This document shows, in pieces, positions 10,794 to 61,131 of a stretch of 64,000 nucleotides of DNA. This stretch comes from Squalus acanthias (taxonomy: Eukaryota). Positions within the stretch are counted from its first letter, which is position 1. The number at the start of each line of letters is the position of its first letter. The notes below the pieces were generated by a model. That model saw only the letters and a list, made by a program, of their open reading frames with translations. It did no database searches and was not told the DNA's origin. The position numbers and the translations under genes are program-made. Where the stretch lies: contig CM059437.1 of the NCBI GenBank assembly GCA_030390025.1, positions 54,374,001-54,438,000 on the forward strand, given 5' to 3'.

Positions 10794-10801
10794 ATTTGCA
10801 T
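10794..10801 (+). promoter_or_regulatory. Ig light-chain promoter octamer ATTTGCAT (cluster 1)
   Basis: Perfect octamer ~130 bp upstream of the leader ATG, followed by AT-rich AAATATTAAA and preceded by CCAAT. Confidence 0.85.
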
Positions 10802-10926: not shown

Positions 10927-10975
10927 ATGAGTGAGTGGCTTCGTGTTCTCGCCGCCCTGATGTTCTGTTTGCAAT
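10927..10975 (+). CDS. IGL: Ig light chain cluster 1 leader exon (MSEWLRVLAALMFCLQ + 1 nt)
   Basis: Hydrophobic signal peptide; phase-1 GTAAGT donor at 10976; conserved in all three clusters. Confidence 0.9.
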
Positions 10976-11123: not shown

Positions 11124-11474
11124 GTACCAACGCGGGTATTGTGCTGACTCAGCCACCGTCCATCTCAACTTCACTGGAAAAATCCGTCACAATCACTTGC
11201 ACCCTGTCCGGAGGCAGCATGTGCAGCTACTACACGAGCTGGTACTGGCAGAAACCCGGCAGTGCCCCTGCCTTTGTTTGGAGCGACTATGATTCGAGCA
11301 GAGGTTCGGGGATTCCTGATCGATTCACTGGATCCAGGGACACGTCGTGCAACGTCATGCATTTAACCATCAGCAATTTACAATCCGGGGATGCCGCCGA
11401 TTATTACTGTGGTGCCTGGGATTACACTGTTGGTGGATTCACTTTCGGGACAGGAACTGAACTGAATCTGGGCA
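11124..11474 (+). CDS. IGL: Ig lambda-type (elasmobranch type II) fused VJ exon, cluster 1
   Basis: TTTCTCCAG acceptor; IVLTQPPS..ITCTLSG..WYWQKPGSAP..GIPDRFTGS..DAADYYC runs directly into FGTGTELNLG; GTAAGT donor at 11475; no RSS between V and J. Confidence 0.95.
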
Positions 11475-14400
11475 GTAAGTATATTTTTCGCTTTGTTCAT
11501 CTGAGAGTCTTGAAGTGCGAGTTTTCAATTGTTAGCTTAATCCGGTTGCAGTGAAAAAGCTTCCGAACGTACATTTATAATTCTCCGATTCCCTCTTGGT
11601 GTTTAGAGGGAGATGTATATCTATTCTGTTTGCCAAATGCTCATGAAACTGTCGCGCAACAATTACAATGTTATGGATGAAATTCTAAAATCTACCGAAT
11701 AATTATTTTTAGGTGGGTGGAATTCAGCCTGCACCAGTTTAATTATAATTTATTGGTGATTTGAAACTTATTCGTAAAGCATTGGTCAATCTGCATGAGA
11801 CGGCATTAAACATCTCTCGATACTTGTGAGTGACTTACATTGTCCTCGCGCTGTGCTTCATAACTCACGTAGAGCTAAAAAAAACTATAACCTGAAATAT
11901 TTTTATAATTCCCCGACACGGTGCCATTAAAGATTCCCAATCAGAGAGTTGGAGTATGTGTCATTAGTGCGACATTCTCAGTATTGTATTTCATGTTAGT
12001 CATTAATTCATAATTTCATTAGTGAGTAACGAATAGCTATAAATCACAGTGACTGGGTTAGAAATTATAATAATAAAAATTACAGTTTTTAAGAAGTTGA
12101 TCTTCTTTTTTGCAGACAGGGATATTGCGGTTATCAGAGATAAAATGTGATAAGAGATTTGTTGCCTTTGGAAAGACATTGTGGATGGAGACGGTCATAT
12201 CCTGTCTTGTATAGTTCTTCGTTTTTAAGGAAGCTGGGAAATATTGACTGAAGAGAGATTAGCTTAATTAGGTCAAATGATGCATCCTGGGTAACTACGA
12301 TTTCCTGGAGCTTCCTTGATCCCCTTCAAGAGTTTCAGAGAAATTTCCCAGAGCTTTCCCGGAATTGGTCACGTGTTTTTCGCTGTTTTGGCTCCCCAGA
12401 AGATGACAATACGGGACGGTGCATGAGTGGATATCCTCAGCAACTAAGGGTCTGAAACTCCTTTCCCATCTTTCCATTTGTATATTTGAAGCATTGCAAT
12501 AAGAATCAGTGTTTGAACCCGCGCCGATATTTTAACCACTGAAAGACTTCGACTTCGACTCCGATTTATTTTGTATGGATAGAACCGCGGGATCAGCATT
12601 CGAATTTTTATTTAATTCTGTCAGTAAAAAAGTATAACCCTACAGTTAATCCGAGAGACTCAAAGGGCATTTTTATTGGGATATTTAGCTACAGGCTGTA
12701 GAAAAGGCGCTTTGTTTTATTATAAGTTGTTTCATTCAACTTACATCTGATGCAAGTTAAATTTAGAAGACAATTTTAACAGAGTAGGTGATTATACTTT
12801 CAAACTATTTACACGTCTGACGGTTGGTTTGTCTCAGTTGATAACTTTCTCACGTCTGGATCAGAACGTTTTAGATTTAAATCCTCTTTCCAGGCGTTAC
12901 ATCGGAACATAGGAACAGGCGAACACTATGTAGCCCATTGAGCCTGTTCCACCATTCCATTGGATCATGGCTGATATGTAACTCAACTCCGCCTTTGCTC
13001 CCTATCCCTTGAGATCCTTAGAATACAAAAATCCATCGATCTCAGTCGTGAAAATCTCAATTTACCCAACAGCCACAACCTTTTTGGGGCAGGGGTTTTC
13101 AGATTTCCACCACCCTTTGTGTGAAAGAGTGCTTCCTGGTTTCACTCCTTAATGCCCTAGCTCTAATTTTAATACCTTGCCTTCTTGTTCTGAATTCCCC
13201 CACCAGAGGAAATAGTGATATGGAGGGAGTGCGGCATTGAAGGAAATGCCTTCCTTTGGATAACGCCATTAAGAGGAGTTCCACATTCCTGTTCAAGGGG
13301 ACGTTCACGATCCCATTGCATTATTCAAGGTACAGCAGAAAAGCACATCCCATACTCGCTTCAATCATTGCCTTAAAAGAAAGGGATTTGCGTCTGTAGC
13401 TTCGTGCTTTGTTTAAGCTTACTATCACTGCGCTTCAAAGTCATATGTGTGAAAACTGATGTGGTGCTAGATAATGCTACTCGTTATTCTTCTTATATTA
13501 ACATAAACAAGTAGAAGCAGCTGATCTTTCTGCAGCAGATTGTTCCTCGTCTGACTAGGCATCTAAAAGCCGAAATACTGGGTAGCGATTATATCAAACA
13601 GTTTCCCAAGCGTGACTCTGCCAGGATGTAATTTTAGTCTCAGCATTCAAAGTATAACCGACTGAAAAGACTGAACAGAATGGGGCTCTGAAGCATTGAA
13701 CATGCTGGGTGGTGGCCTAAAAGAGGTCTTTAAATTCATGAAAGCGTTTGATAGTGTAGAAGTAGGAAAGATGTTTCCACTTGATGGGTAGTCCAAAACC
13801 ATGGGTCATAAATAGTTGATAGTCACTAATAAATCCAAGAAGGAATTCAGGAAAAACTTTTTTATCCAAAGAGTGTTTAGACTGTGGAACTTGCTACCAC
13901 ATGCAGCAGATGAAGCGAAATGCCTTTAAGGGGAAGCAAGATAAGTACATGAGGGATAAACGGATGGAAGGATATGCAGATAGGGTTAGATGAATTAGTG
14001 TGGGAGGAGGCTCGTGTGGAGCATGAACACCGACATAGATCAGTTGGGTGGAATGGCCTGTTTCTGTACTCCACATTCTATGTAATTCCATGTAAAAATC
14101 TAAGAAAGTGTGGCGCCGTTTAGCGTTATTAAACTTGCACCGAAATATTCTTAATATGTTTGGACTACATATTAAAAGAAAATTTAAAGAAAGAAAAACT
14201 ATGATCTCCTGTTTTAATCCAAATAAGAGTGAATAGTCTTTCAGTTTTATATTTTTTCTCGATGCACGGAGCCCTCGGTTTTTCTTCAATTCGTTATATA
14301 GTTTTCTAAATCAACGGACCCTAAGTGATTAGTTAAAGAACGTTATTACTCTCCCATTTTAACAATTTTAAGCTAGTACAGACGTACCAAATTTAAAACT

Positions 14401-14484
14401 GTGAGAAAGTAAACGATTGAATGCAGACTCTTTACATCCAATTCAGAGTGGATCTTCACAGGCTGTTCCTACTTTGCTTTTTAG

Positions 14485-14807
14485 ATCCGCGGGCCCCCTC
14501 GGTGACCGTCCTTCCGCCTTCACCGGATCAAATCAGGGAAAAGAACACGGCGACCCTGGTGTGTCTGGTGAACCGCTTCAACCCGGGCGCTGTGGAGATT
14601 GAGTGGACTGTAGATGGTTGTGTCAGAGGGAATGGTGTTGTGACCAGTCGGATCAAGCAGGAGACGGACAACACATTCAGTGTGAGCAGTTATCTGACTC
14701 TACCAGCCTCAGAGTGGAACTCACATGAGCTTTACACCTGTGTGGTTAAACACGAGACTCAGGCAAACCCGCTTAAAACAAGTATCTCCAGATCCAGCAG
14801 TATCTGA
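14485..14807 (+). CDS. IGL: Ig light chain constant exon C1 (lacks the C-terminal Cys)
   Basis: TTTTAG acceptor; PRAPSVTVLPPS..ATLVCLV..EW..FSVSSYLTL..YTCVVKHE..SRSSSI*. L+VJ+C = 49+351+323 = 723 nt, an open 240-aa frame. Confidence 0.95.
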
Positions 14808-14919
14808 CAGAATAATCTTACGTATTCGTCTAATATACCATCAGCAAACTTTCTTTGAACAAAGTTCGAAATTAAAGGTTAGATCTTTTTGGTTTAATTG
14901 CTGTATTTCAAGTTATAGC

Positions 14920-14925
14920 AATAAA
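14920..14925 (+). terminator. Polyadenylation signal after C1 (second AATAAA at 15019-15024)
   Basis: AATAAA ~113 nt after the stop; conserved after C2 (37804) and the orphan C (45620). Confidence 0.6.
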
Positions 14926-16424
14926 TATGCAGTTAGTTTGTTTGCTTGATTGCACGAGGTGAACCCAAGAGTGTGCTGACTCTGCAGTCATCATACCTTT
15001 ACTGTCTCATTGCAGTGTAATAAAATTATTGTTCCACTGTCTCAGATGATATTATTCTTTTCTTGCTTTAATTCTCTCCGAATTTATGATCATTTTTAAA
15101 ACGTCCAAATCTCGAGATTGCACTCTTTGTAGACATTTGCAAATTTTCATAAAACTGCCAAACTCTCAGTAGAAATGAAGATTTAACAGAACGGTTGAGT
15201 GATGGGTCGAACTATAACAACGTATAAAATGCTAAATTCGGTTTGTATATTAATTGAACTACGTTGCGTCTGTGATTGCGTTTAACATTCTCCCTTTTCT
15301 GAATGACCTCGGTGGAAAACTATATAAATACCAAATAACGTTGTATTATACACATTGGATAATATAAATCTTAATCAGAATTCCAGTCGAATAAGAATAT
15401 AAAGTGAATTGAAAAGAGAACGCATAGAAACATAGAATGATGCCGCACAGAAGGAGGCCATGAGGCCCATCGGGTTTGTGCCGGCTCTTTGGAAGAGCTT
15501 CTCCAATTAGGCCCACTCCCTGCTCTTTCCCCATAGCCCTGCTATTTCCTCCCCTTCAAGTATTTCAGCGCCATCTCTGAATTCATCCCACAAGTAGTTA
15601 AAGCACGCATCCCATGATTAGAAACATTCACATGTTCGAGTTTATTTTGAATCAATTTTAATTGCATTGATCAGAGGCATAAGAACACGAACAGTACAAA
15701 TACCCCTTTTTGCGCAAAAGGCTTAGTGAATCAAAGGTATCGCTGTGCAGTGTTCGGTGGTGTGCGCAGATAACGGCTAAATTAGGATAACTTGACATGA
15801 GCAGAATGCATTATGGATGAATGCCTTGAGAATTACTAATGTTACTATGGGACAAACTAGTTTAGGCATAATGGGAAAGTACATGAATGAACTCATCGAA
15901 GCCTTGTAAGAAAACAGACTGAAGAGATATTGAGATAAAGGAACTGGAACCGTCTGCTACATATAAGGTTAGAGCAAGGCATACAAAGACAGCAGTTGAG
16001 ATGGAGTTCCAAGGGCAGAACTATTACAACTCAGTTCAGCTATGCCTGTTTGCTAATCTTTATAAATATGAATGATCAGCAAAAAAAGGTCAGACCCAGC
16101 GCTGCAAACTGCCATGAACAGTACCGTTTGTATGTCCCAAATAGACATTCTACTTCTGAGTTAATCGACGTCTATTACTTACTTTTAGTCTTAGTGCGCT
16201 CTCAAATATCAATAAACATGAGCCAATGTATCACTTACTCATGTGCCTTAGAATCTGTTATTTACTTTATATAGAACAGTTTTGGCGAACATAGAAGATA
16301 GGAACAGGAGTAGGACATTCGGCCCCTCGAGCCTGTTCCGACGTTGAATGAGATCATGGCTGATCATCCAAATTCAGTACCCAGTCCCTGCTTTCTCCCC
16401 ATAAGCCTTGATCCCTTTAGCCTT

Positions 16425-16650
16425 GTGTAACCGCAGCTCCTGCACCTGTGGCCGTGTGACCGGGGCTCCTGCACCTGTGGCCATCTAACCGGGGCTCCGC
16501 TTGCCGTGTAACCGGGGCTCCTGCATCTGTGGCCTTGTAGCCGCGGATCCTGCACCTGTGGCAGTGTACCCGGGGCTCCTGTACCTGTGGCCGTATAACC
16601 GGGGCTCCTGAACATGTGGCTGTGTAACCGAGGCTCCTGCACATGTGGCC
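16425..16650. repeat. 29-bp minisatellite, 8 units (GTGTAACCGGGGCTCCTGCACCTGTGGCC)
   Basis: Units visible directly; paralog with 6 units at 47123-47290. Confidence 0.9.
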
Positions 16651-16654
16651 GGGT

Positions 16655-17420
16655 TAGAAACATAGAAACATAGAAGATAGGAGCAGGAGTAGGCCATTCG
16701 GTCCCTCGAGCCTGCACCGCCATTCAATGCGATCATGTCTGATCATCCAAATTCAGTACCCTGTCCCTGCTTTCTCCCCATATCCCTTGGTCCCTTTAGC
16801 CTTAAGAAATATATCTAACTCCTTCTTGAATATATTTAATAAATTGACCTCAACTGCCTTCTGTGGTAGAGAATTCCACAGGTTCACCACTCTCTGGGTG
16901 AAGAAATTCCTCCTCATCTCAGTCCTAAATGGCTTACCCCTTATCCTTTGACTGTAACCTCTGGTTCTGGACTCCCCGGCCATCGGGAACATCCTTCCTG
17001 CATTTAGTCTGTCTAGTCCTGTTAGAATTTTATCAGTTTCAATGAGATCCCCTCTCATTCTTCTAAACTCTAGCGAATATAAGGCTAATCGACCAATCTC
17101 TCTTCATACGTCAGTCCTGCCATCCCAGGTATCAGTCTGGTGAATCTTCGCTGCACTCCCTTCATGGCAAGAACATCCTTTCTCAGATAAGGCAACAACA
17201 ACTGCGCACAATACTCAAGGTGTGGTCTCACCAAGGCCCTGCACAAACGTAGCAAGACATCCTTGCTCCTGTACTCGAATCCTCTCGCTATGAAGGCCAA
17301 CATACCATTTGCTTTCTTAACCGCCTGCTGCACCTGCATACTTACCTTCAGCGACTGGTGCACAAGGACACCCAGGTCTCGTCGCACTTCCCCTTTTCAA
17401 AATCTATTGCCGTTCAGATA
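16655..17420 (-). mobile_element. 5'-truncated CR1 (ORF2 C-terminus and tail); an extra tail copy lies at ~16288-16423
   Basis: ORFs 17085-17387 (RPHLEYC, VQRRFTRLIPG) and 16753-17058 (RGDLIE..FFTQRVVNLWNSLP). Confidence 0.9.
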
Positions 17421-17422
17421 AT

Positions 17423-17760
17423 GGGCAAAAAATTCGGGTCACCACGTGAGAGTACGCGCAGTGTACTCACCCATAGACCCAGCAAAAGTGCCGGTTTCGC
17501 GCTTGCACTGTGCATGCGCTGGAAACTGGAACTTCCGTTCCCTTGAAGTAAGAGGTTCAGAGTTCAAACGCATGCGCCGGAGAGGCAGCACATATGCCTG
17601 GAACTTCCGGTTTTTTTTTAGGTTTCTCCGTGAGGGTAAGTCCCTAGCAGATGCGTTGAAAAAGCAGGCACAAGGCCTGCTTTTAACAAATAAGTGCTGA
17701 ATTAAGTAAAATTTTAACATTTTTTCCACAGGTTTATATTTTTTAAATTTACTATAACAA
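17423..17760. mobile_element. Truncated Harbinger-type non-autonomous element (paralog ~48060-48400)
   Basis: Starts GGGCAAAAAATT and resembles the left end of the MITE at 34681; right end not found. Confidence 0.5.
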
Positions 17761-18353
17761 CCGAACTACAATTTGCACCATCATAAAGTTCAGCGTGGGA
17801 TTACAGTAAAACTGATTTGCATTGAATGTACAGCGAAAAAACAGGCCATTCGGCCCAACTGATCTATGCCGCCCTTTATGCTCCATATGAGGCTCCTCCC
17901 ACCCTACGTCATTTAACCCTATCACCATATCCTTCTATTCCTTTCTTCCGCTCAAACTCATCTCATCATCTATGCTATTTGTGTCAATTTATCCTTGTGG
18001 TTGCGTGTTCCATATTCTTACCACTCTTTGGGAATGACGTTTCTCCTGAATTCCCTATTGGATTTATTAGTGCCTATCTTATATTTCTGACCTCTAGTTT
18101 TGGACTCCCCCACAAGTGGAAAAAAATTCTTTACGTCTACCCTCTCAAACTCTTCCATTATCTCAGGTCACCCCTTAGCCTTTTCTTTTCTAGAAAAAAG
18201 AGTCTCAGCCTGTTCAGCCTCTCCTGATAAGTATTTCCTCTCGGTTCTGGTATCATCCCTGTGAATATTGTTTGCACCTTCAGCAATGCCTCTATATCCT
18301 CTTTATAATATAGAGACCAGAAATGTGCACAGTACTCCAAGTGTGGTATAACC

Positions 18354-18635
18354 AAAACAAAAGCAAAATACTGCTGATGCTGGAAATCTGAAATTAAAGT
18401 AAAAAAATGCTGGAAATACTCAGCAGGTCAGGCCGCATTTGTAGATAGAGAAACAGGGTTAACATTTCAGATCGAGGATTTATCATCAGAATTGGTGAAA
18501 GTTAGAGATGTTACAGGTTTTAAGCAAGTACAGAGGCAGGGAAAGGGGGAGGGGAGGAAATAACTAAAAGGAAGCTCTGTTGTAGGGTGGAAGGCCGAGG
18601 TAATTAAACGACAAAACGGATGATAGTGCAAGGCC
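18354..18635 (-). mobile_element. Penelope-like terminal-repeat fragment with a degenerate hammerhead motif (paralog ~48993-49275), within CR1 debris
   Basis: Same family as the palindrome at 63599-63822; minus strand has CTGATGA..GAAATGTTAACC at 18457-18493. Confidence 0.55.
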
Positions 18636-20578
18636 GTCGAAAATTTCCTTTGCATTATTTCCAAGACCTTGATATCCAATCTAAAGTGTGGTGTCCAGAA
18701 TTGGATACAAAACTCTAGCTGAGGTCTAACCATCATTTCCTTGCTTTTCTATTCTATGCCTTTATTTATATGCTTTTTTAAGAGCTTTATCAACTTGTCC
18801 TGCCACCTTCAAACATTTGTGTATGTGAATCCCCAGGTCTCATTCTTCCTGCACCCCCTTTGAAATTGTACCATTTAGTTCATACAGTCTCTCGTCATTT
18901 TATTTCCGAAATGCATCACTTCACACTTCTCTGCATTAAATTTAATCTGTCATGTGTCTGCCCAATTCACCAGTCTGTCTATTTCCTCCTGACGACTCCT
19001 ACTAGTCTCCGCATTGTTTATTACATTTCCACGCTTTGTGTACTTCCATAAATTAACCATTGGGCCAAAAATGGCTGTCGACGGCCTACCTCCGGAGTGC
19101 GCGGCCGACCTACGAAAAGAACACACAGCCACCGAAGGTGGCCCTCCTGCAGAAACTTGCGCTCGCACGCTGCGAGTCGGAGGGCAGAGGCTGCGTCCCT
19201 GGGATCACGTGGGCTTGGTCCGCCAATCGGAAAACAGATTGTCTTTCATTCATTTAAATTACTACATTACTTCATTACTACAGCTTTTCAATTACATACA
19301 GATATAGCTTCCTCTTGCGGGAATCCAATTAATTACTTATAATTCTCACTTCTAAGCAAATACTGTGCACGGTGCAGAAAGTTATGAAAATCAAACGTTA
19401 TTTAAGAAAAACCTGCAGCTTTAACATACACTAGGATTGCTTCGCATTTTTGCTGGATGTCATTTATTTAAAAGGAAAGCACTTTATTTTAATTTCGGTA
19501 TCCATTTACGCTGTGGAAACAGGCCCTGCGCCAGCTGTAAAATTTCCGTACGCAATAGCTGGGCAGTTGTTGGGCAAATAGCCCAACTCTGCGCCGGCAA
19601 TTAGGTTTTTGGAGGCGTAACGGATGGCCTCTCAACGCATACAAGCGCATGTGGAAATCCCAAACTTGCGGTGGATTTCAAAGGCAGTATGACAGTGTAC
19701 TCTGAGAGTACGCCGTCATACCCACCTCAAATCCGGGCCCTTTCACATCAATCTACAAAGCCTAAATCGTTTTGGAGAATAGCATCTAACCTACTTTTTT
19801 GTATTATAATACCTCAGCCTCTCGTTGGTTAAATAGAATATCGATACAACAGAACAATGCCCAACATTACAGGTTACAAACTTGCATCCCAGGTGAATGG
19901 AATCGAAGAGTGAAAGGAAGCGCTTTGACTGTATTCCGAAAAGTATAACCAGTGTAATTGCGCGAGGTACCAGGAAATGAAATTTAATAACTACCTTCTT
20001 AGTGTAATAATATAACACTACAGCTGCCCTAAACAGACTGAGATCTCAAAATGCCGAAAGTAATGACGTGGAATAACGTTATTAGCACTCTAGCACATAA
20101 TAAACAACTACTAATAGATAACGACAGCGTCTTAATTTTTTATATCCAGAAATTAGCAATTGCCATGATGCCCAGCAATATATCTGTTGAGAAATTACAT
20201 AGAATACACAGCACCGAAACAGGCCATTCGCCCCATCTAGTCCATGTCGTTGTTTTTGCTCGCGTCGAGCCTCCTCCCATCCTTCCTCATCTAACTTTAT
20301 AAGCGTAACCCTTTATTCCCTAGTCCCGAATATGCTTATCTAGCTTCCCTTTAAATGCGTCTATATTATTCGTGGGTCCTCATATAAAGCTGTGAAAAAC
20401 AGTAGAGATTGTGTTTTCGACCACCGTTTGGGGTATGAACGTGTTACATTCTGTACCTATGTTAACCATTTCCTTTCCTGAAGGTGTACGTAATGGGGTT
20501 AGGGACCTGCATGACCATATGCTTGGCATCAATAATGTTCTGCACACTGCAGAATCCAAACAGTTAGGAAGAAGTCGC

Positions 20579-33460: not shown

Positions 33461-34009
33461 ATGAGTGAGTGGCTTCGTGTTCTCGCCGCCCTGATGTGCT
33501 GTTTGCAATGTAATTAGAGTGCTGTAAAAGTCTTCAATATTTCTGCTCTTTGTATTACGCTGATCGGGGGCCGTAATTGAGCTTCGCCGGTCTAAATTGC
33601 AATTATTTTCCACGGTTTTACTGAGGATTATTTATCAATAACTTTTTATTTCTCCAGGTACCAACGCGGGTTCGGGTGCTGACTCAGCAACCGTCCATCT
33701 CAACTTCACTGGAAAAAGTCGTCACAATCACTTGCACCATGTCCGGAGGCAGCAAGGGCAGCTATCACACGAGCTGGTACTGGCAGAAACCCGGCAGTGC
33801 CACTGCCCTTGTTTGGAATGACTATGATTCGAGCAGAGGTTCGGGGATTCCTGATCGATTCACTGGATCCAGGGACACGTCGATCAACGTCATGCATTTA
33901 ACCATCAGCAATTTACAATCCTAGGATGCCGCCGATTATTACTGTGGTGCCTGGGGTGGCAGTCCTGTTGTATTCACTTTTGGGAAAGGAACTGAACTGA
34001 ATCTGGGAA
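33461..34009 (+). pseudogene. IGL: Ig lambda-type cluster 2 leader (33461-33509) and fused VJ exon (33658-34009), pseudogene
   Basis: +1 frameshift (TCGG replaces ATT near 33672-33675); TAG at 33922-33924 in the V frame; octamer mutated to ATTTGAAT (33328-33335); CDR3-J CGAWGGSPVVFTFGKGTELNLG. Confidence 0.92.
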
Positions 34010-34680
34010 GTAAGTAAATTTTTCGCTGTGTACGTCGGGGATTCTTAAAGTGTGAGTTTTCAATTGTTGGTTTAATCCGGTTGTTGTGAAAATGCTTTCG
34101 AACATACATTTATAATTCTCCCTCTTGGTGGTTAGAGGGAGATGTATTTCTATTCTGTTTGTTAAATGCTCATGAAACTGTCGCACAACAATTGCAATGT
34201 TATGGATGAAGTTCCAAATAATTATTTTTCGGTGGGTGGAATTCAGCCTGCACCAGTGTAATTATAATTTATTGGTGATTTGCAAAACATTCGTAAAGTA
34301 TTGGTCAATCTGTTTGAGGCGGCATTAAAAAATATCTGGACACTTGTGACTGCCATACATTATCCTCGCGCTGTTCTTCATGACTCGGGTAGAGCTAAAA
34401 AAAAAAACTACAACGTGAAATATTTTATAATTCCCCGACACGGTGCCATTAAAAATTCCCAATCAGAGATTGGGAGCGTGTGTCATTCATGCGATACTCT
34501 CAGTATTGTATTTCATGTTAGTCATAATTTCACTTGTAAGTAACGGATAATTATATTGGGTTTGGGATTGGGTTAGAAATCTTAATATAAATTACAGATT
34601 TTAAGAAGTTGATGGTCTTTTCTGCAGACAGGGATATTGAGGTTATCAGAGATAAAATGTGATTAGAGGTTTGTTGCCTT

Positions 34681-37368: not shown

Positions 37369-37691
37369 AACCGCGGGCTCCGTCGGTGACCGTCCTTCCG
37401 CCTTCATTGGATCAAATCGCAGCAAAGACCACGGCGACCCTGGTGTGTTTGGTGAACGGCTTTAAACCGGGTTCTGTGGAGATTGAGTGGACTGTAGATG
37501 GCAGTGTCAGAGGCAATGGTGTTGAGACCAGTCGGATCCAGCAGGAGACGGACAACACGTTCAGTGTGAGCAGTTATCTGACTCTGCCAGCCTCAGAGTG
37601 GAACTCACACGAGCTTTACACCTGTGTGGTTAAACACGAGACTCAGGCAAATCCGCTTCAAACAAGTATCGCCAGATCGAGTTGTATCTGA
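37369..37691 (+). CDS. IGL: Ig light chain constant exon C2 (intact, canonical ..SSCI end)
   Basis: TTTGTAG acceptor; PRAPSVTVLPPS..LVC..YTC..SIARSSCI*; its partner VJ2 is disabled. Confidence 0.92.
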
Positions 37692-42110: not shown

Positions 42111-45100
42111 AACATCCACATGTTAGAGTTAATTTTGAATTCATTTTAATTGCATTGACCAGACGCATAAGAACAGGAACAGTACAAATACCCCTTTTTG
42201 TGCAAAATGCTTAGCGAACCAAAGGTATCGCTGTGGAGTGTTAGAAGGTGTACATAGATAACGGCAAAATTAGGATAACTTGATATGACCAGAATGCATT
42301 ATGGCTGAATGCCTTGAGAATTAGTAATGTTATTATAGGACCAACAAGATTAGGGATAATAGAAAAATGCATGACTGAGCTCATCAAAGCCATGTAAGAA
42401 AAAAGGCGTAAGAGATCTTGAGCTAAAAAGAACTAGAACAAGGGATACAAAGACAGCAGTTGAGATGGAGTTCCAAGGGTAGAACTATTACAACTCAGTT
42501 CAGATATGCCTGTTTGCTAACCTGTATAAATATGAATGATCAGCAACAACGTTCAGTCTTAGCGCTGCAAATTGCCATGAACAGTATCCAAATAGACATT
42601 CTACTTCTGAGTTAATAGACGTATATTAGTTACTTGCAGTCTTAGTACTTTCTCAAATATCAATAAACATCAGTCAATGTATCCCTTACTCATGCGTCTT
42701 AGAATCTGTTAAATACTGCTTATACAACAATTTTTGCAACTTGTAGCAAGACTCTAAGCAATGCGTATCTGACCAGCGATCCAGGACTGATCAACCCGGA
42801 GCCAACCCCAACGTGTATTAAAGGGAATTCAGGAATAACAAATGAAGTTGACGTTAATAATAAAAAGACATTTTGGATGGAGAAGGTCATATCCTGTCTT
42901 GTATAGTTCTATATTTTAAATGAAACTGGGAAATATTGACTGAAGAGACATTAGCTTAATTAGGTCAAATGATGCATCCTGGGTAACTACGATCCCCTGG
43001 AGCTTCCTTGATCCCCTTCAACAGTTTCAGAGAAATTTCCCAGAGCATTCCCGGAATTGGTCACGTGTTTTTCGCTGTTTTGACTCCCCAGAAGATGACA
43101 ATACGGGAGGGTGCATGAGTGGATATCCTCAGCAACTAACGGTCTGAAACTCCTTTCCCATCTTTCTATTTGTATATTTGAAGCATTGCAATAAGAATCA
43201 GTGTTTGAACCCGCGCCGATATTTTAACCACTGAAAGACTTCGACTTCGACTCCGCTTTATTTTGTATGAATAGAACCGCGGGATCAGCATTCGAATTTT
43301 TATTTAATTCTGTCAGTAAAAAAGTATAACCCGGCAGTTAATCCGAGAGACTAAAAGGGCATTTTTATTGGGATATTTAGCTACAGGCTGTAGTAAAGAC
43401 GTTTTGTTGTATTATAAATTGTTTCATTCAACTTACATCTGATGCAAGTTAAATTTAGAAGACAATTTTAACAGAGTAGGTGATTATACTTTCAAACTAT
43501 TTACACGTCTGGCGGTTGTTTTGTCTCAGTTGGGAACTTTCTCACGTCTGGATCAGAACGTTGTAGATTTAAGCCCTCTTTCCAGGCGTTACATCGGAAC
43601 ATATGAACAGGAGAACACTATGTAGCCCATTGAGCCTGTTCCACCATTCTATTAGATCATGGCAGATATGTAACTCAACTCCATCTATCCGCCTTTGCTC
43701 CCTATCCCTTGATACCCTTAGAGTACAAAAATCCATCGATCTCAGTCGTGAAACTCTCAATTTACCCAACACCCACAAACTTTTTGGGGCAGGGGATTTC
43801 AGATTTCCACCACCCTCTGTATGAAAGAGTGCTTCCTGGTTTCACTCCTTAATTCCCTAGCTCTAATTGTAATACCTTGGCTTCTTGTTCTGGATTCCCC
43901 CACCAGAGGAAATAGTGATATGGAGGGAGTGCGGCATTGAAGGAAATGCCTTCCTTTGGATAACGCCATTAAGAGGAGTTCCACATTCCTGTTCAAGCGG
44001 ACGTTCACGATCCCATTGCATTATTCGAGGAACAGCAGAAAATCACATCCCATACTCGTTTCAATCATTGCCTTAAAAGAAAGGGATTTGCGTCTGTAGC
44101 TTCGTGCTTTGTTTAAGCTTACTATCACTACGCTTCAAAGTCGTATGTGTGAAAACTGATGTGGTGCTAGATAATGCTACTCGTTATTCTTGTTATATTA
44201 ACATAAACAAGTAGAAGCAGCTGAGCTTTCTGCAGCAGATGGTTCCTCGCCTGACTAGGCAGCTAAAAGCCGAAATACTGGGTAGCGATTATATCAAACA
44301 GTTTCCCAAGCGTGACTCTGCCAGGATGTAATTTTAGTCTCAGCATTCAAAGTATAACCGACTGAAAAGACTGAACAGAATGGGGCTCTGAAGCATTGAA
44401 CATGCTGGGTGGTGACCTGAAAGAGGTCTTTAAATTCATGAAAGCGTTTGATATTGTAGAAGTAGGAAAGATGTTTCCACTTGATGGGTAGTCCAAAACC
44501 ATGGGTCATAAATAGTTGATAGTCACTAATAAATCCAAGAAGGAATTCAGGAAAAACTTTTTTATCCAAAGAGAGTTTAGACTGTGGAACTTGCTACCAC
44601 ATACAGCAGATGAAGCGAAATGCCTTTAAGGGGAAGCAAGATAAGTACATGAGGGATAAACGGATGGAAGGATATGCAGATAGGGTTAGATGAATTAGTG
44701 TGGGAGGAGGCTCGTGTGGAGCATGAACACCGACATAGATCAGTTGGGTGGAATGGCCTGTTTCTGTACTCCACATTCTATGTAATTCCATGTAAAAATC
44801 TAAGAAAGTGTGGCGCCGTTTAGCGTTATTAAACTTGCACCGAAATATTCTTAATATGTTTGGACTACATATTAAAAGAAAATTTAAAGAAAGAAAAACT
44901 ATGATCTCCTGTTTTAATCCAAATAAGAGTGAATAGTCTTTCAGTTTTATATTTTTTCTCGATGCACGGAGCCCTCGGTTTTTCTTCAATTCGTTATATA
45001 GTTTTCTAAATCAACGGACCCTAAGTGATTAGTTAAAGAACGTTATTACTCTCCCATTTTAACAATTTTAAGCTGGTACAGACGTACCAAATTTAAAACT

Positions 45101-45184
45101 GTGAGAAAGTAAACGGTTGAATGCAGACTCTTTACATCCAATTCAGAGTGGATCTTCACAGGCTGTTCCTACTTTGCTTTTTAG

Positions 45185-45507
45185 ATCCGCGGGCCCCCTC
45201 GGTGACCGTCCTTCCGCCTTCACCGGATCAAATCAGGGAAAAGAACACGGCGACCCTGGTGTGTCTGGTGAAACGCTTCAACCCGGGCGCTGTGGAGATT
45301 GAGTGGACTGTAGATGGTTGTGTCAGAGGGAATGGTGTTGAGACCAGTCGGATCAAGCAGGAGACGGACAACACATTCAGTGTGAGCAGTTATCTGACTC
45401 TACCAGCCTCAGAGTGGAACTCACATGAGCTTTACACCTGTGTGGTTAAACACGAGACTCAGGCAAACCCGCTTGAAACAAGTATCTCCAGATCCAGCTG
45501 TATCTGA
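45185..45507 (+). CDS. IGL: Orphan Ig light chain constant exon C3 (no own L/V/J)
   Basis: Differs from C1 at only 4 nt; intact acceptor and ORF ending ..SRSSCI*; no V or J between 37691 and 45185. Confidence 0.88.
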
Positions 45508-47122
45508 TAGAGTAATCTTATGTATTCGTCTAATATACCATCAGCAAACTTTCTTTGAACAAAGTTCGAAAGTAAAGGTTAGATCTTTTTGGTTTAATTG
45601 CTGTATTTCAAGTTATAGCAATAAATATGCAGTTAGTTTGTTTGCTTGATTCCACTAGGTGTACCCAAGAGTGTGCTGACTCTGCAGTCATCATACCTTT
45701 ACTGTCTCATTGCAGTGTAATAAAATTATTGTTCCACTGTCTCAGATGATATTATTCTTTCCTTGCTTTAATTCTCTCCGAATTTATGATCATTTTTAAA
45801 ACGTCCAAATCTCGAGATCCACTCTTTGTAGACATTTGCAAATTTTCATAAAACTGCCAAACTCTCAGTAGAAATAAAGATTTAACAGAACGGATGAGTG
45901 ACGGGTCGAACTATAACAACGTATAAAATGCTAAATTCGGTTTGTACATTAATTGAACTACATTGCGACTGTGATTGCGTTTAATATTCTCCCTTTTCTG
46001 AATGACCTCGGTGAAAACTATATAAATACAAAATATCGTTGTATCATACACATTGGAAAAGATAAATCTTAATCAGAATTCCAGTAGAATAAGAATATAA
46101 ACTGAATTGAAAAGAGAACGCATAGAAACATAGAATGATGCCGCACAGAAGGAGGCCATGAGGCCCATCGGGTTTGTGCCGGCCCTTTGGAAGAGCTTGT
46201 CCAATTAGGCCCACTCCCCTGCTCTTTCCCCATAGCCCTGCTATTTCCTCCCCTTCAAGTATTTCAGCGCCATCTCTGAATTCATGCCACAAGTAGTTAA
46301 AGCACGCATCCCATGATCAGAAACATTCAGATGTTCGAATTTATTTTGAATCAATTTTAATTGCATTGATCAGAGGCATAAGAACACGAACAGTACAAAT
46401 ACCCCTTTTTGCGCAAAAGGCTTAGTGAATCAAAGGTATCGCTGTGCAGTGTTCGGTGGTGTGCACAAATAACGGCTAAATTAGGATAACTTGACATGAG
46501 CAGAATGCATTATGGATGAATGCCTTGAGAATTACTAATGTTACTATGGGACAAACTAGTTTAGGCATAATGGGAAAGTACATGAATGAACTCATCGAAG
46601 CCATGTAAGAAAACAGACATAAGAGATATTGAGATAAAGGAACTGGAATCGTCTGCTACATATAAGGTTAGAACAAGGGATACAAAGACAGCAGTTGGGA
46701 TGGAGTTCCAAGGGCAGAAATATTACAACTCTGTTCAGCTATGCCTGTTTGCTAATCTTTATAAATATGAATGATCAGCAACAAAGTTCAGTCCCAGCGC
46801 TGCAAACTGCCATGAACAGTATCGTTTGTATGTCCCAAATCGACATTCTACTTCTGCTTTCATAGACGTCTATTACTTACTTGTAGTCTTAGTGCGCTCT
46901 CAAATATCAATAAATATCAGCCAATGTATCACTTACACATGTGTCTTAGAATCTGTTATTTAATTTATATAGAACAGTTTTGGCGAACATAGAAGATAGG
47001 AGCAGGAGTAGGCCATTCGGCCCCTCGAGCCTGTTCCAACGTTTAATGAGATCATGGCTGATCATCCAAATTCAGTACCCAGTCCCTGCTTTCTCCCCAT
47101 ATCCCTTGATCCTTCTAGCCTT

Positions 47123-47290
47123 GTGTAACCGCGGCTCCTCCAACTGTGGCCATGTGAACGGGGCTCCTGCACCTGTGGCCATCTAACTGGGGCTCCTGTT
47201 GCCGTGTAACCGGGTCTCCTGCATCTGTGGCCTTGTAACAGCGGATCCTGCACCTGTGGCAGTGTAACCGAGGCTCCTGCACATGTGGCC
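47123..47290. repeat. 29-bp minisatellite, 6 units
   Basis: Paralog of 16425-16650. Confidence 0.9.
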
Positions 47291-47295
47291 TGATT

Positions 47296-48058
47296 AGAAA
47301 CATAGAAACATAGAAGATAGGAGCAGGAATAGGCCATTCGGCCCCTCGAGCCTGCACCACCATTCAATGCGATCATGGCTGATCATCCAAATTCAGTACC
47401 CTGTCCCTGCTTTCTCCCCATATCCCTTGGTCCCTTTAGCCTTAAGAAATATATCTAACTCCTTCTTGAATATATTTAATGAATTGGCCTAAACTGCCTT
47501 CTGTGGTAGAGAATTCCACATGTTCACCACTGCCTGGGTGAAGAAATTCCTCCTCATCTCAGTCCTAAATGTCTTACCCCTTATCCTTTGACTGTGACCT
47601 CTGGTTGTGGACTCCCCCACCATCGGGAGCATCCTTCCTGCATCTAGTCTGTCTACTCCTGTTAGAATTTTATCAGTTTCAATGAGATCCCCTCTCATTC
47701 TTCTAAACTCTAGCGAATATAAACGTAATCGACCCAATCTCTCTTCATACGTCATTCCTGCCATCATATCAGTCTGGTGAATCTGCGCTGCACTCCCTTC
47801 ATGGCAAGAACATCCTTTCTCAGGTAAAGCGACCAAAACTGTGCACAATACTCAAGGTGTGGTCTCACCAAGGCCCTGTACAAAAGCAGCAAGACATCCT
47901 TGCTCCTGTACTCGAATCCTCTCGCTATGAAGGCAAACATACCATTTGCTTTCTTAACCGCCTGCTGCACCTGCATACTTACCTTCAGCGACTGGTGCAC
48001 AAGGACACCCAGGTCTTGTTGCACTTCCCCTTTTCCCAATCTATTGCCGTTCAGATAT
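47296..48058 (-). mobile_element. 5'-truncated CR1, paralog of 16655-17420
   Basis: ORFs 47764-48204 and 47489-47848. Confidence 0.88.
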
Positions 48059-49877
48059 TGGGCCAGAAATTCGGGTCTCCACGGGTGAGTACGCACAGTG
48101 TACTGACCCGTAGACCCAACAAAAGTGCCAGTTTCGCGCATGCACTGTGCATGCGCTGGAAACTGCAACTTCCGTTCCCTTGAAGGAAGGGGTTCGGAGG
48201 TCAAACGCGTGCGCTGGAGAGGCAGTGCATATGCCTGGAACTTCCGGGTTTTTTTCAGGTTTCTCCGTTGGGGTAAGTCCCTGGCAGATGCGTTGAAAAA
48301 GCAGGCACAAGGCCTGCTTTTAACAAGATAAGTGGTGAATTAAGTAAAATTTACACATTTTATCCACAGGTTTATCTTTTTTAAATTTACTATAACCACC
48401 GAACTACAATTTGCACGATCATAAAGTTCAGCGTGGGATTACAGTAAAAATGATTTGCATTGAATGTACAGCGAAGAAACAGGCCCTTCGGCCCAACTGA
48501 TCTATGCCGCCTATTATGCTCCATATGAGGCTCCTCCCACCCTACGTCATTTAACCCTATCACCATATTCTTCTATTCCTTTCTTCCGCTCAAACTCATC
48601 TCATCATCTATGCTATTTGTGTCAATTTATCCTTGTGGTTGCGTGTTCCATATTCTTACCACTCTTTGGGAATTACGTTTCTCCTGAATTCCCTATTGGA
48701 TTTATTAGTGCCTATCTTATATTTCTGACCTCTGGTTTTGGACTCCCCCACAAGTGGAAAAAAATTATTTATGTCTACCCTCTCAAACTCTTTCATTATC
48801 TCAGGTCATCCCTTAGCCTTCTTTTTTCGAGAAAAAAGAGTCTCAGCCTGTTCAGCCTCTCCTGATAAGTATTTCCTCTCGGTTCTGGTATCATCCCTGT
48901 GAATAGCTTTTTGCACCTTCACCAATGCCTCTATGTCCTTTTTATAATATGGAGACCAGAAATGTGCACAGTACTCCAAGTGTGGTATAACCAAAACAAA
49001 AGCAAAATACTGTTGATGCTGGAAATCTGAAATTAAAGTAGAAAATGCTGGAAATACTCAGCAGGTCAGGCCGCATTTGTAGATAGAGAAACAGGGTTAA
49101 CATTTCAGATCGAGGATTTATCATCAGAATTGGTGAAAGTTAGAGATGTGAAAGGTTTTAAGCAAGTACAGAGGCAGGGAAAGGGGAGGGGAGGAAAGAA
49201 CTAAAAGGAAGGTCTGTTGTAGGGTGGAAGGCCAAGGTAATTAAACGACAAAACGGATGATAGTGCAAGGCCGTCGAAAATTTCCTTTGCATTATTTCCA
49301 AGACCTTGATATCCAATCTAAAGTGTGGTGTCCAGAATTGGATACAAAACTCTAGCTGAGGTCTAACCATCATTTCCTTGCTTTTCTATTCTATGCCTTT
49401 ATTTATATGCTTTTTTAAGAGCTTTATCAACTTGTCCTGCCACCTTCAAACATTTGTGTATGTGAATCCCCAGGTCTCATTCTTCCTGCACCCCCTTTGA
49501 AATTGTACCATTTAGTTTATACTATCTCTCGTCATTTTATTTCCAAAATGCATCACTTCACACTTCTCTGCATTAAAATTAATCTGTCATTAATCTGCCC
49601 AATTCACCAGTCTGTCTATTTCCTCTTGACGTCTCCTACTAGTCTCCGCATTGTTTATTACATTTCCACGCTTTGTGTACTTCCATAAATTAACCATTGG
49701 GCCAAAAATTGCGGTCGACGGCCTCCCTCCGGAGTACGCTGCCGACCTGCGAAAAGAACACACAGCCACCGAAGGTGGCCCTCCTGCAGAAACTTGCGCT
49801 CGGACGCTGCGAGTCGGAGGGTAGTGGCTGCGTCCCTGGGATCACGTAGGCTTCGTCCTCCAATCAGAAAACAGATT

Positions 49878-50621
49878 GGCCCAGAAATTGATCTCGCTCT
49901 GTTCCCGCGGGGGTAAGCCTTCCCCGCGATGTCTCACCTCGCTTATGCTTTTTCTGATCCAGCTCGCACGAACTTGATGTTCCAGACATCAGCTGTGCTG
50001 GGCTTGCGTATCCCAGCGGCGTAGTTAATTCGTGCGAGCTGTGGGATCACGTGACTCAGTTAGAGCCAATGGCAGCACACCATCTCCCATTCATAAGTCT
50101 CACAGCATGGCTGTGAGACTTATGAATCTTACACCCCCCCAAAATAACAGCTAAACCTCAATTAAATTAATAAAAATACCCATCACATTAATAAAATAAG
50201 TATAGTTAATTAAATTAACCATTTTAAATAAAAAATTAAATTTTTGAAAAAATTTAAAATCTTTTAAAAAGTTATAAAAATAAACTTACCTGTCTTTAAA
50301 GTCTATAAAAAAGATATACCTGTAAAAAAAAATTCAAAAAAATACTTAATTCACTACTTACCTTCTTAAAAGCGGGTCTTACTCCTCCTTTTTACATTTC
50401 CAAAATCTTCCCTACTTACCTGCGCGTCCAAAGCATGAAGTGCACAGCGTGCGCGCAGCCTGTAGCGCGCACGCGATGCACCCAGGCCCCGCCCCCTTTT
50501 CAGAAGAGCAATTGCCGGTTTTCAGCGCATGCGCAGGGCATGCAGAAAACCGGCAATTGGAGTGGAAATACGCGAGAGTACGCAGTGCGTACTCTCGCGT
50601 CCCGGGATCAATTTTCGGCAT
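49878..50621. mobile_element. ~744-bp Harbinger-type MITE, inverted relative to 34681-35423
   Basis: Starts GGCCCAGAAATT; reverse-complement match to the cluster 2 copy; absent at the paralogous site ~19241. Confidence 0.8.
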
Positions 50622-60583: not shown

Positions 60584-60632
60584 ATGAGTGAGTGGCTTCG
60601 TGTTCTCGCCGCCCTGATGTTCTGTTGGCAAT
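60584..60632 (+). CDS. IGL: Ig light chain cluster 3 leader exon (MSEWLRVLAALMFCWQ + 1 nt)
   Basis: Homologous to leader 1; GTAAGT donor at 60633. Confidence 0.9.
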
Positions 60633-60780
60633 GTAAGTAGAGGGATGTAAAAGTCTTCAATATTCCGGCTCTTTGTATTACGCTGATCGGGTACAATACT
60701 TGAGCTTCACCGGTCTGAATTGCAATTATTTTCCACGGCTTTACTGAGGGTCACTTATCAATAACTTTTTATTTCTCCAG

Positions 60781-61131
60781 GTACCAACGCGGGTATTGTG
60801 CTGACTCAGCCACCGTCCATCTCAACTTCACTGGGGAAAACCGTCAAAATCACTTGCACCCTGTCCGGAGGCAGCATGGGCAGCTGGTATACGAGCTGGT
60901 ACTGGCAGAAACGCGGCAGTGCCCCTGCCTTTGTTTGGAGGGACTATGATTCGAGCAGAGGTTCGGGGATTCCTGATCGATTCACTGGATCCAGGGACGC
61001 GTCGAGCAACGTCATGCATTTAACAATCAGCAATTTACAATCCGGGGATGCCGCCGATTATTACTGTGGTGCCTGGGATGGCAGTCCTGCTGGACACACT
61101 TTCGGGAAAGGAACTGAACTGAACCTGGGAA
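60781..61131 (+). CDS. IGL: Ig lambda-type fused VJ exon, cluster 3 (intact; C exon expected ~0.3 kb beyond the window)
   Basis: 351-nt open exon ..YYCGAWDGSPAGHTFGKGTELNLG with canonical splice sites; the downstream intron is colinear with cluster 2 up to ~37035. Confidence 0.95.

Follow-up and report, generated by a model that had tools for sequence, protein, structure and literature searches.

Cluster 1 of this stretch of DNA is an intact germline-joined shark immunoglobulin lambda (type II) gene whose constant exon, C1, has lost the cysteine that normally bonds a light chain to the heavy chain. The penultimate cysteine of CL makes the heavy-light (H-L) disulfide. Cluster 1 is intact and invariant and encodes serine at that codon; its product therefore cannot form the canonical bond. 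Of the seven cysteines in the mature chain, four are canonical; the other three are Cys30 (CDR1), Cys72 (DE loop) and Cys45 (C domain). In our assessment, the scales tip towards drift, selection on this redundant copy having recently relaxed, which gives a lineage-specific variant and not a designed rewiring.

Anatomy of cluster 1 and its neighbours

The window, that is, the whole 64-kb stretch analysed (G000:C13:54374001-54438000), is part of a lambda light-chain array made up of germline-joined clusters, and three VJ and three C exons fall within the window. Cluster 1 is one of about thirty such genes in this shark genome. The parts of the window described here, from the octamer of cluster 1 to C3, lie on the + strand. 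The cluster begins with an intact promoter octamer (ATTTGCAT, 10794..10801) and a leader exon with donor GTAAGT (10927..10975), followed by the germline-joined VJ1 exon (11124..11474), with an open frame, a lambda V fold and CDR3 GAWDYTVGGFT, and the C1 exon (14485..14807). Two AATAAA polyadenylation signals follow (14920 and 15019; 14920..15024), likewise present in C2 and C3. Spliced leader, VJ and C encode 240 aa, with the sole stop at the end. Splice sites, octamer and polyadenylation signals are all undamaged, and a pseudogene check for stops, frameshifts and broken signals found none. The GT..AG joint 10975>11124 occurs in a contig of run X11 that possibly derives from a paralogue. Scanning the window for recombination signal sequence (RSS) patterns gave no match, and the VJ frame is continuous, as in germline-joined V-J-C genes. 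This joined state is ordinary, because every cartilaginous-fish lambda gene studied is germline-joined (PMC4279169, PMC5192425).

The C domain is 85-88% identical to lambda chains of Heterodontus, Squalus and Pristiophorus, the nearest annotated proteins being chondrichthyan lambda. Two named Squalus acanthias C domains equal genomic copies at 106/106 residues. The predicted structure of VJ1 has a mean pLDDT of 95.7, and human lambda-6 V domains are its closest solved structures. VJ1 sits in a seven-copy V branch of this genome and, more widely, in an old branch of germline-joined lambda V that spans seven shark genera, with chains of exactly 240 aa and V identity of 73-82% (P0033, P0010, P0042, P0023, P0011, P0041, P0057, P0122, P0046, P0036). 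Its CDR3 stretch GAWDYTVGG is found again in Mustelus. The penultimate cysteine is kept by 11/12 members of this branch.

Downstream lies a broken leader-VJ2 (33461..34010), with altered octamer and leader donor, a frameshift and a TAG stop, which serves as a neutral control. The C2 exon (37369..37691) is an ordinary lambda constant exon with loop Ser and C-terminal Cys. Downstream of both is a V-less duplicate of 12172-19241 (42864..49878, 95% identical), which carries C3 (45185..45507). C3 is 98.8% identical to C1 (4 exon positions differ), has cysteines in the loop (45319) as well as at the C-terminal site (45499), and lacks a VJ of its own; the two are sisters with full support in the tree. 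C3 as a mis-assembled C1 allele is ruled out, the blocks differing by ~5% over 7 kb. Between ~13750 and ~14750 the two blocks diverge unusually little, and a conversion tract may therefore have moved the loop Cys between C1 and C3. The VJ2 intron ends at the equivalent of 12171 (window 34683) and the C3 block begins at the equivalent of 12172 (42864), with ~8 kb containing C2 and an inverted 760-base piece in between; on this alignment the two ends appear to be the shared breakpoint of one rearrangement.

The family has signs of birth and death (broken VJ2, L011, L030, L061 and L062). The AGGGAA (Arg-Glu) patch of C1 and C3 (window 14535-14540) also occurs in the broken neighbours L030 and L062, a likely sign of conversion or shared ancestry. 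For the PDQIREK stretch, tandem hypermutation is an unlikely origin: AGGGAA is common to L030 and L062, and similar motifs occur in other sharks. VJ4 (window 60584-61131) is open and has changed at the flanking rate (11/399 against 37/1471 flanking). Its C exon, L027, just outside the window, has Val87Asp and other rare residues, and the VJ4 cluster may also be drifting.

Lost and gained cysteines

The 3' end of C1 reads ISRSSSI before the stop and those of C2 and C3 read SSCI; every letter given for these ends in the original prediction was correct on re-reading. The penultimate codon of C1, at the position of the H-L cysteine (Cys105; 14799..14801), is AGT, the result of a single T>A change found in C1 alone. 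TGT stands there in 29/30 near-full-length genomic lambda C copies, with C1 as the sole exception. The C-terminal Cys is likewise present in 9/9 further readable lambda-type C exons and in 43/43 C exons of other light-chain types. The total comes to 81 of at least 82 readable light-chain C exons, again with C1 as the exception, a lower bound in which the best 150 of 836 candidates were scored and part of those fetched. Four C exons on one contig (L109-L112; G000:C75), presumably kappa-like, are identical in protein sequence.

A set of 262 cartilaginous-fish lambda proteins from other records, reduced to 259 after 3 were dropped as too short or unrelated, was used for comparison. The penultimate Cys is present in 256/259 of these C domains; one of the others has Tyr, one Gly and one is truncated. 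Judged from these sequences, loss of the C-terminal Cys by point change (C1 in this genome, 2/259 homologues) is not a conserved design.

The whole difference rests on a single base, and 14799A might mean nothing for the species at large, as an error of the assembly or as one animal's rare allele. We regard this as unlikely. The base was to be verified in reads, and in public DNA run X1 an 83-base contig (depth 6.6) equals 14769-14851 without mismatch, 14799A included. It agrees with four linked C1-specific letters (14799, 14808, 14812 and 14821), which speaks against a consensus error; an assembly or sequencing error is thus unlikely, and the contig says nothing on allele frequency. The read support is this one contig, whose short side is 30 letters, one below the 31-letter bridging rule, and X1 is possibly the assembly's own sample. 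In run X3, from a second animal, no C1-specific contig over 14799 was seen among 8 pieces listed, with thin cover. Two further points weigh against the rare-allele reading: Cys45 occurs in two copies, and VJ1-specific contigs were found in both DNA samples.

The V frame of L032 (G000:C13:54529451-54529802) is shifted by a one-base deletion in the assembly. An X11 contig that otherwise matches L032 has no gap, and a spliced J-C end matches the C exon of L032 (L005). This deletion would be either an assembly error or an allele; its absence from the contig indicates that the region has errors or alleles, and to that extent favours the rare-allele reading.

The second change in the C domain is a gain. 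Cys45 (Ser>Cys, TGT, 14619..14621) lies in a loop that reads TVDGCVRG in C1 and C3 and TVDGSVRG in C2, letters that the original prediction had right. This codon is TGT in 2/30 near-full-length genomic lambda C copies (C1 and C3), and a cysteine is found there in 0/259 cartilaginous-fish lambda C domains. By alignment the residue corresponds to IMGT 45.1 and to an Ala of human kappa, which we take to be residue 153. Kappa 153 is the Km allotype site, detected by serology (PMC7555362); because the aligned site is serologically detectable, Cys45 would be exposed. An A153C conjugation-site parallel was dropped, with no support in the literature searched.

That Cys45 takes over from Cys105 by bonding to the heavy chain (Cmu1 or Cmu2) or to a second light chain (an L-L bond), as originally suggested, is most improbable. 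Some facts do fit: the same domain gained one Cys and lost one, an exposed Cys is available, and L-L bonds exist in IgA2 (PMC2138581), via other residues. The orphan C3 exon speaks against it, since it has the C-terminal Cys as well as Cys45, and Cys45 thus does not compensate for the loss of Cys105. In addition, the Km-equivalent site falls outside the confidently modelled CH1 contacts, and Cmu1 residues 9-14, beside its Cys15, are modelled as touching C1 near 100-101. Four of the four Cmu1 exons read have the usual A-B loop Cys and none has an extra partner Cys, a sample that covers a minority of the IgM/IgW clusters. On these sequences, Cys45 is probably not a replacement for Cys105.

The structure model of C1 with Cmu1 scores 0.78, against 0.02 for the best control. 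The score mark was reached by 51/78 solved against 2/108 mismatched microbial pairs, and by 39/65 eukaryotic pairs without a like complex against 2/126 unrelated pairs, a calibration with no antibodies in it. At least 95% of contacts recur between runs, and the partner pLDDT is 91. CH1-CL pairs are widely solved, and the score therefore indicates likeness to such pairs and not binding. The confident contacts involve C1 residues 7-29, 52-69 and 100-101, that is, the usual sheet plus 100-101; Cys45 is not among them, an unlisted residue being uncertain and not proof of distance. Glu52Val, private to C1 (14640..14642), lies at the modelled CH1 contact face. Non-covalent pairing, one of the fates first proposed for the chain, is plausible. 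If translated, the chain would be expected to sit on IgM Cmu1 via the usual beta-sheet face without a disulfide, and Cmu1's own Cys and the surface Cys45 would then stay free or be capped.

The two extra V cysteines that had been predicted are present in the assembly as TGC codons, both private to VJ1: Gly30Cys in CDR1 (11222..11224) and Ser72Cys at residue 5 of the 8-residue DE loop (11348..11350). Cys occurs at position 30 in 1/258 homologues and at position 72 in 0/258. CDR1 and the DE loop are adjacent (PMC7671036); Cys30 and Cys72 may or may not pair with each other. The complete pattern of three extra cysteines and a missing penultimate Cys occurs in 0/259 homologues.

Relaxed selection or a functional chain

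Since its split from C3, the C1 exon has acquired 3/323 private changes, against 20/2280 in the flanks (Fisher P=0.76; small counts), and all three are nonsynonymous. The orphan C3 behaves alike (2/323 against 15/2280). Across cluster 1, 8/8 private coding changes are nonsynonymous (P=0.12 under neutral expectation). The V side is different. Leader plus VJ1 have 5/399 private changes against 57/1471 flanking (P=0.007), and the dead VJ2 shows no such deficit (13/399 against 49/1471). For most of its history the V exon was under constraint or was being homogenised, and any decay must therefore have begun recently; conversion could also explain the VJ1 deficit, because there is no synonymous change at all.

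Cysteine is involved in 3/8 private coding changes (P=0.006 under neutral change), which weakens to ~0.13 over 23 clusters, and in 4 of ~6 rare residues (P ~0.0005 to 0.001 before correction). Set against 127 homologues, C1 has no unseen residues beyond the two Cys changes; the other substitutions occur in other sharks. Stray Cys gains are common among genomic C copies. They are found in lambda L017 and in 5/39 C exons of another light-chain type (L116, L119, L138, L145 and L152), which we take to be sigma-2-like. A further C exon, L114, reads on past its usual stop. An A>T mutation bias was rejected, with 93/499 private non-coding changes around V exons against 12/57 in cluster 1 and no special excess.

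Early decay, which the original prediction had set as its null, comes out as the somewhat more likely reading: C1 changes at the flanking rate, against which stand the conserved VJ1 exon and the intact signals. Concerted rewiring, in whose favour the enriched Cys changes and the conserved V exon speak, is somewhat less likely than early relaxation. The description of a disulfide-rewired invariant chain survives in part, the chain being invariant and without the canonical H-L bond; Cys45 as the replacement link is not supported.

A functional, selected invariant lambda chain is possible at lower probability. Such a chain would pair non-covalently with the heavy chain, carry a Cys30-Cys72 staple, keep Cys45 free or capped, and possibly serve in early life. 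It would account for the conservation of VJ1 relative to its flanks, for the creation of Cys by 2/5 private V changes (P=0.013) in loops that the source places side by side, and for the non-Cys C1 changes all being of tolerated types. The undamaged expression signals and the membership of the old 240-aa branch, with the same CDR3 stretch in another shark, point the same way. Non-covalent H-L pairing has precedents: IgA2, for which it is described (PMC2138581), and squamate IgM, for which it is presumed (PMC4279169). Expression confined to early life, in pups, is known for some of the germline-joined light chains of sharks (PMC2193156). Against a functional chain stand the absence of the pattern from every homologue, the flanking rate of C1 since its split from C3, and the weakening of the Cys excess over all clusters.

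Under the preferred reading of drift in a redundant copy, the history would run in three steps. Cys45 would have arisen first, the C block would then have been duplicated to give C3, and C1 would afterwards have lost Cys105 via the one T>A change and gained Glu52Val. A C1/C3 conversion tract could blur this putative order.

Transcript evidence comes from runs X11 and X13, which are RNA only by our guess. Every aligned contig has the paralogue letters at 11222, 11348, 14618, 14641 and 14655, and neither V Cys was seen in the aligned read contigs. These runs are unfit to show absence: there is no cover at 14812-14823, low-frequency variants are lost from contigs, and the allele may be missing from these animals. 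Named Squalus light-chain proteins include 0/13 that are C1-like, a sample too small to count. A full-text literature search, mainly in open-access papers, found no report of this light-chain variant.

If cluster 1 is drifting, it does no more than illustrate how a spare antibody cluster loses constraint while its frame still has no premature stop. Were it both expressed and fixed, sharks would have a natural case of the H-L bond being abandoned by the light chain, whose binding loops a new disulfide may lock, and this would bear on the role of germline-joined shark light chains. The surface site equivalent to kappa 153 would then also offer a test, made by nature, of what a Cys does there. 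Lack of an H-L bond is in itself already known among antibodies.

Comparison with known systems

Cluster 1 has the layout of the cartilaginous-fish lambda (type II/NS3) VJ-C clusters, with joined VJ (PMC4279169, PMC5192425). It differs from them in the missing penultimate Cys and in the extra cysteines at C45, V30 and V72.

The closest parallel is an annotated protein of the sawshark Pristiophorus japonicus, P0010 (UniRef100_UPI00398F2077), from the same V branch (82% identity), which ends in SSYI. Like cluster 1, it has lost the penultimate Cys, to Tyr and not Ser, and has one extra V Cys; unlike cluster 1, it has that Cys in CDR2 and not in CDR1 or the DE loop, and Arg at C position 45. The shared loss counts in favour of a functional chain. 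P0010 also has 7 residues found in no other homologue and may itself be decaying, so that the two sequences would represent either convergent loss or parallel decay. It is rather doubtful that an old invariant lambda branch shed the H-L disulfide independently in two shark lineages, with a CDR1-DE-loop staple here making a rigid, pre-formed chain, either paired non-covalently or secreted on its own, perhaps in early life.

The surrogate light chain resembles cluster 1 in being invariant and lambda-related. VpreB and lambda5, however, are separate chains, each with a unique tail, and a disulfide links lambda5 to mu; cluster 1 encodes a single chain of ordinary V-J-C lambda layout with no separate V-like and C-like parts of that kind, and the suggestion of a surrogate-like chain was set aside.

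Human IgA2 and squamate IgM/IgY share with cluster 1 the lack of a canonical H-L bond, pairing being non-covalent or presumed so (PMC2138581, PMC4279169). Human IgA2 has its light chains joined to one another (PMC2138581; PMC7916673), and cluster 1 differs in that the Cmu1 exons read keep their Cys. In squamates it is the heavy chain of a whole class that lost the cysteine (PMC4279169), whereas in cluster 1 it is one light-chain paralogue that has lost its own cysteine.
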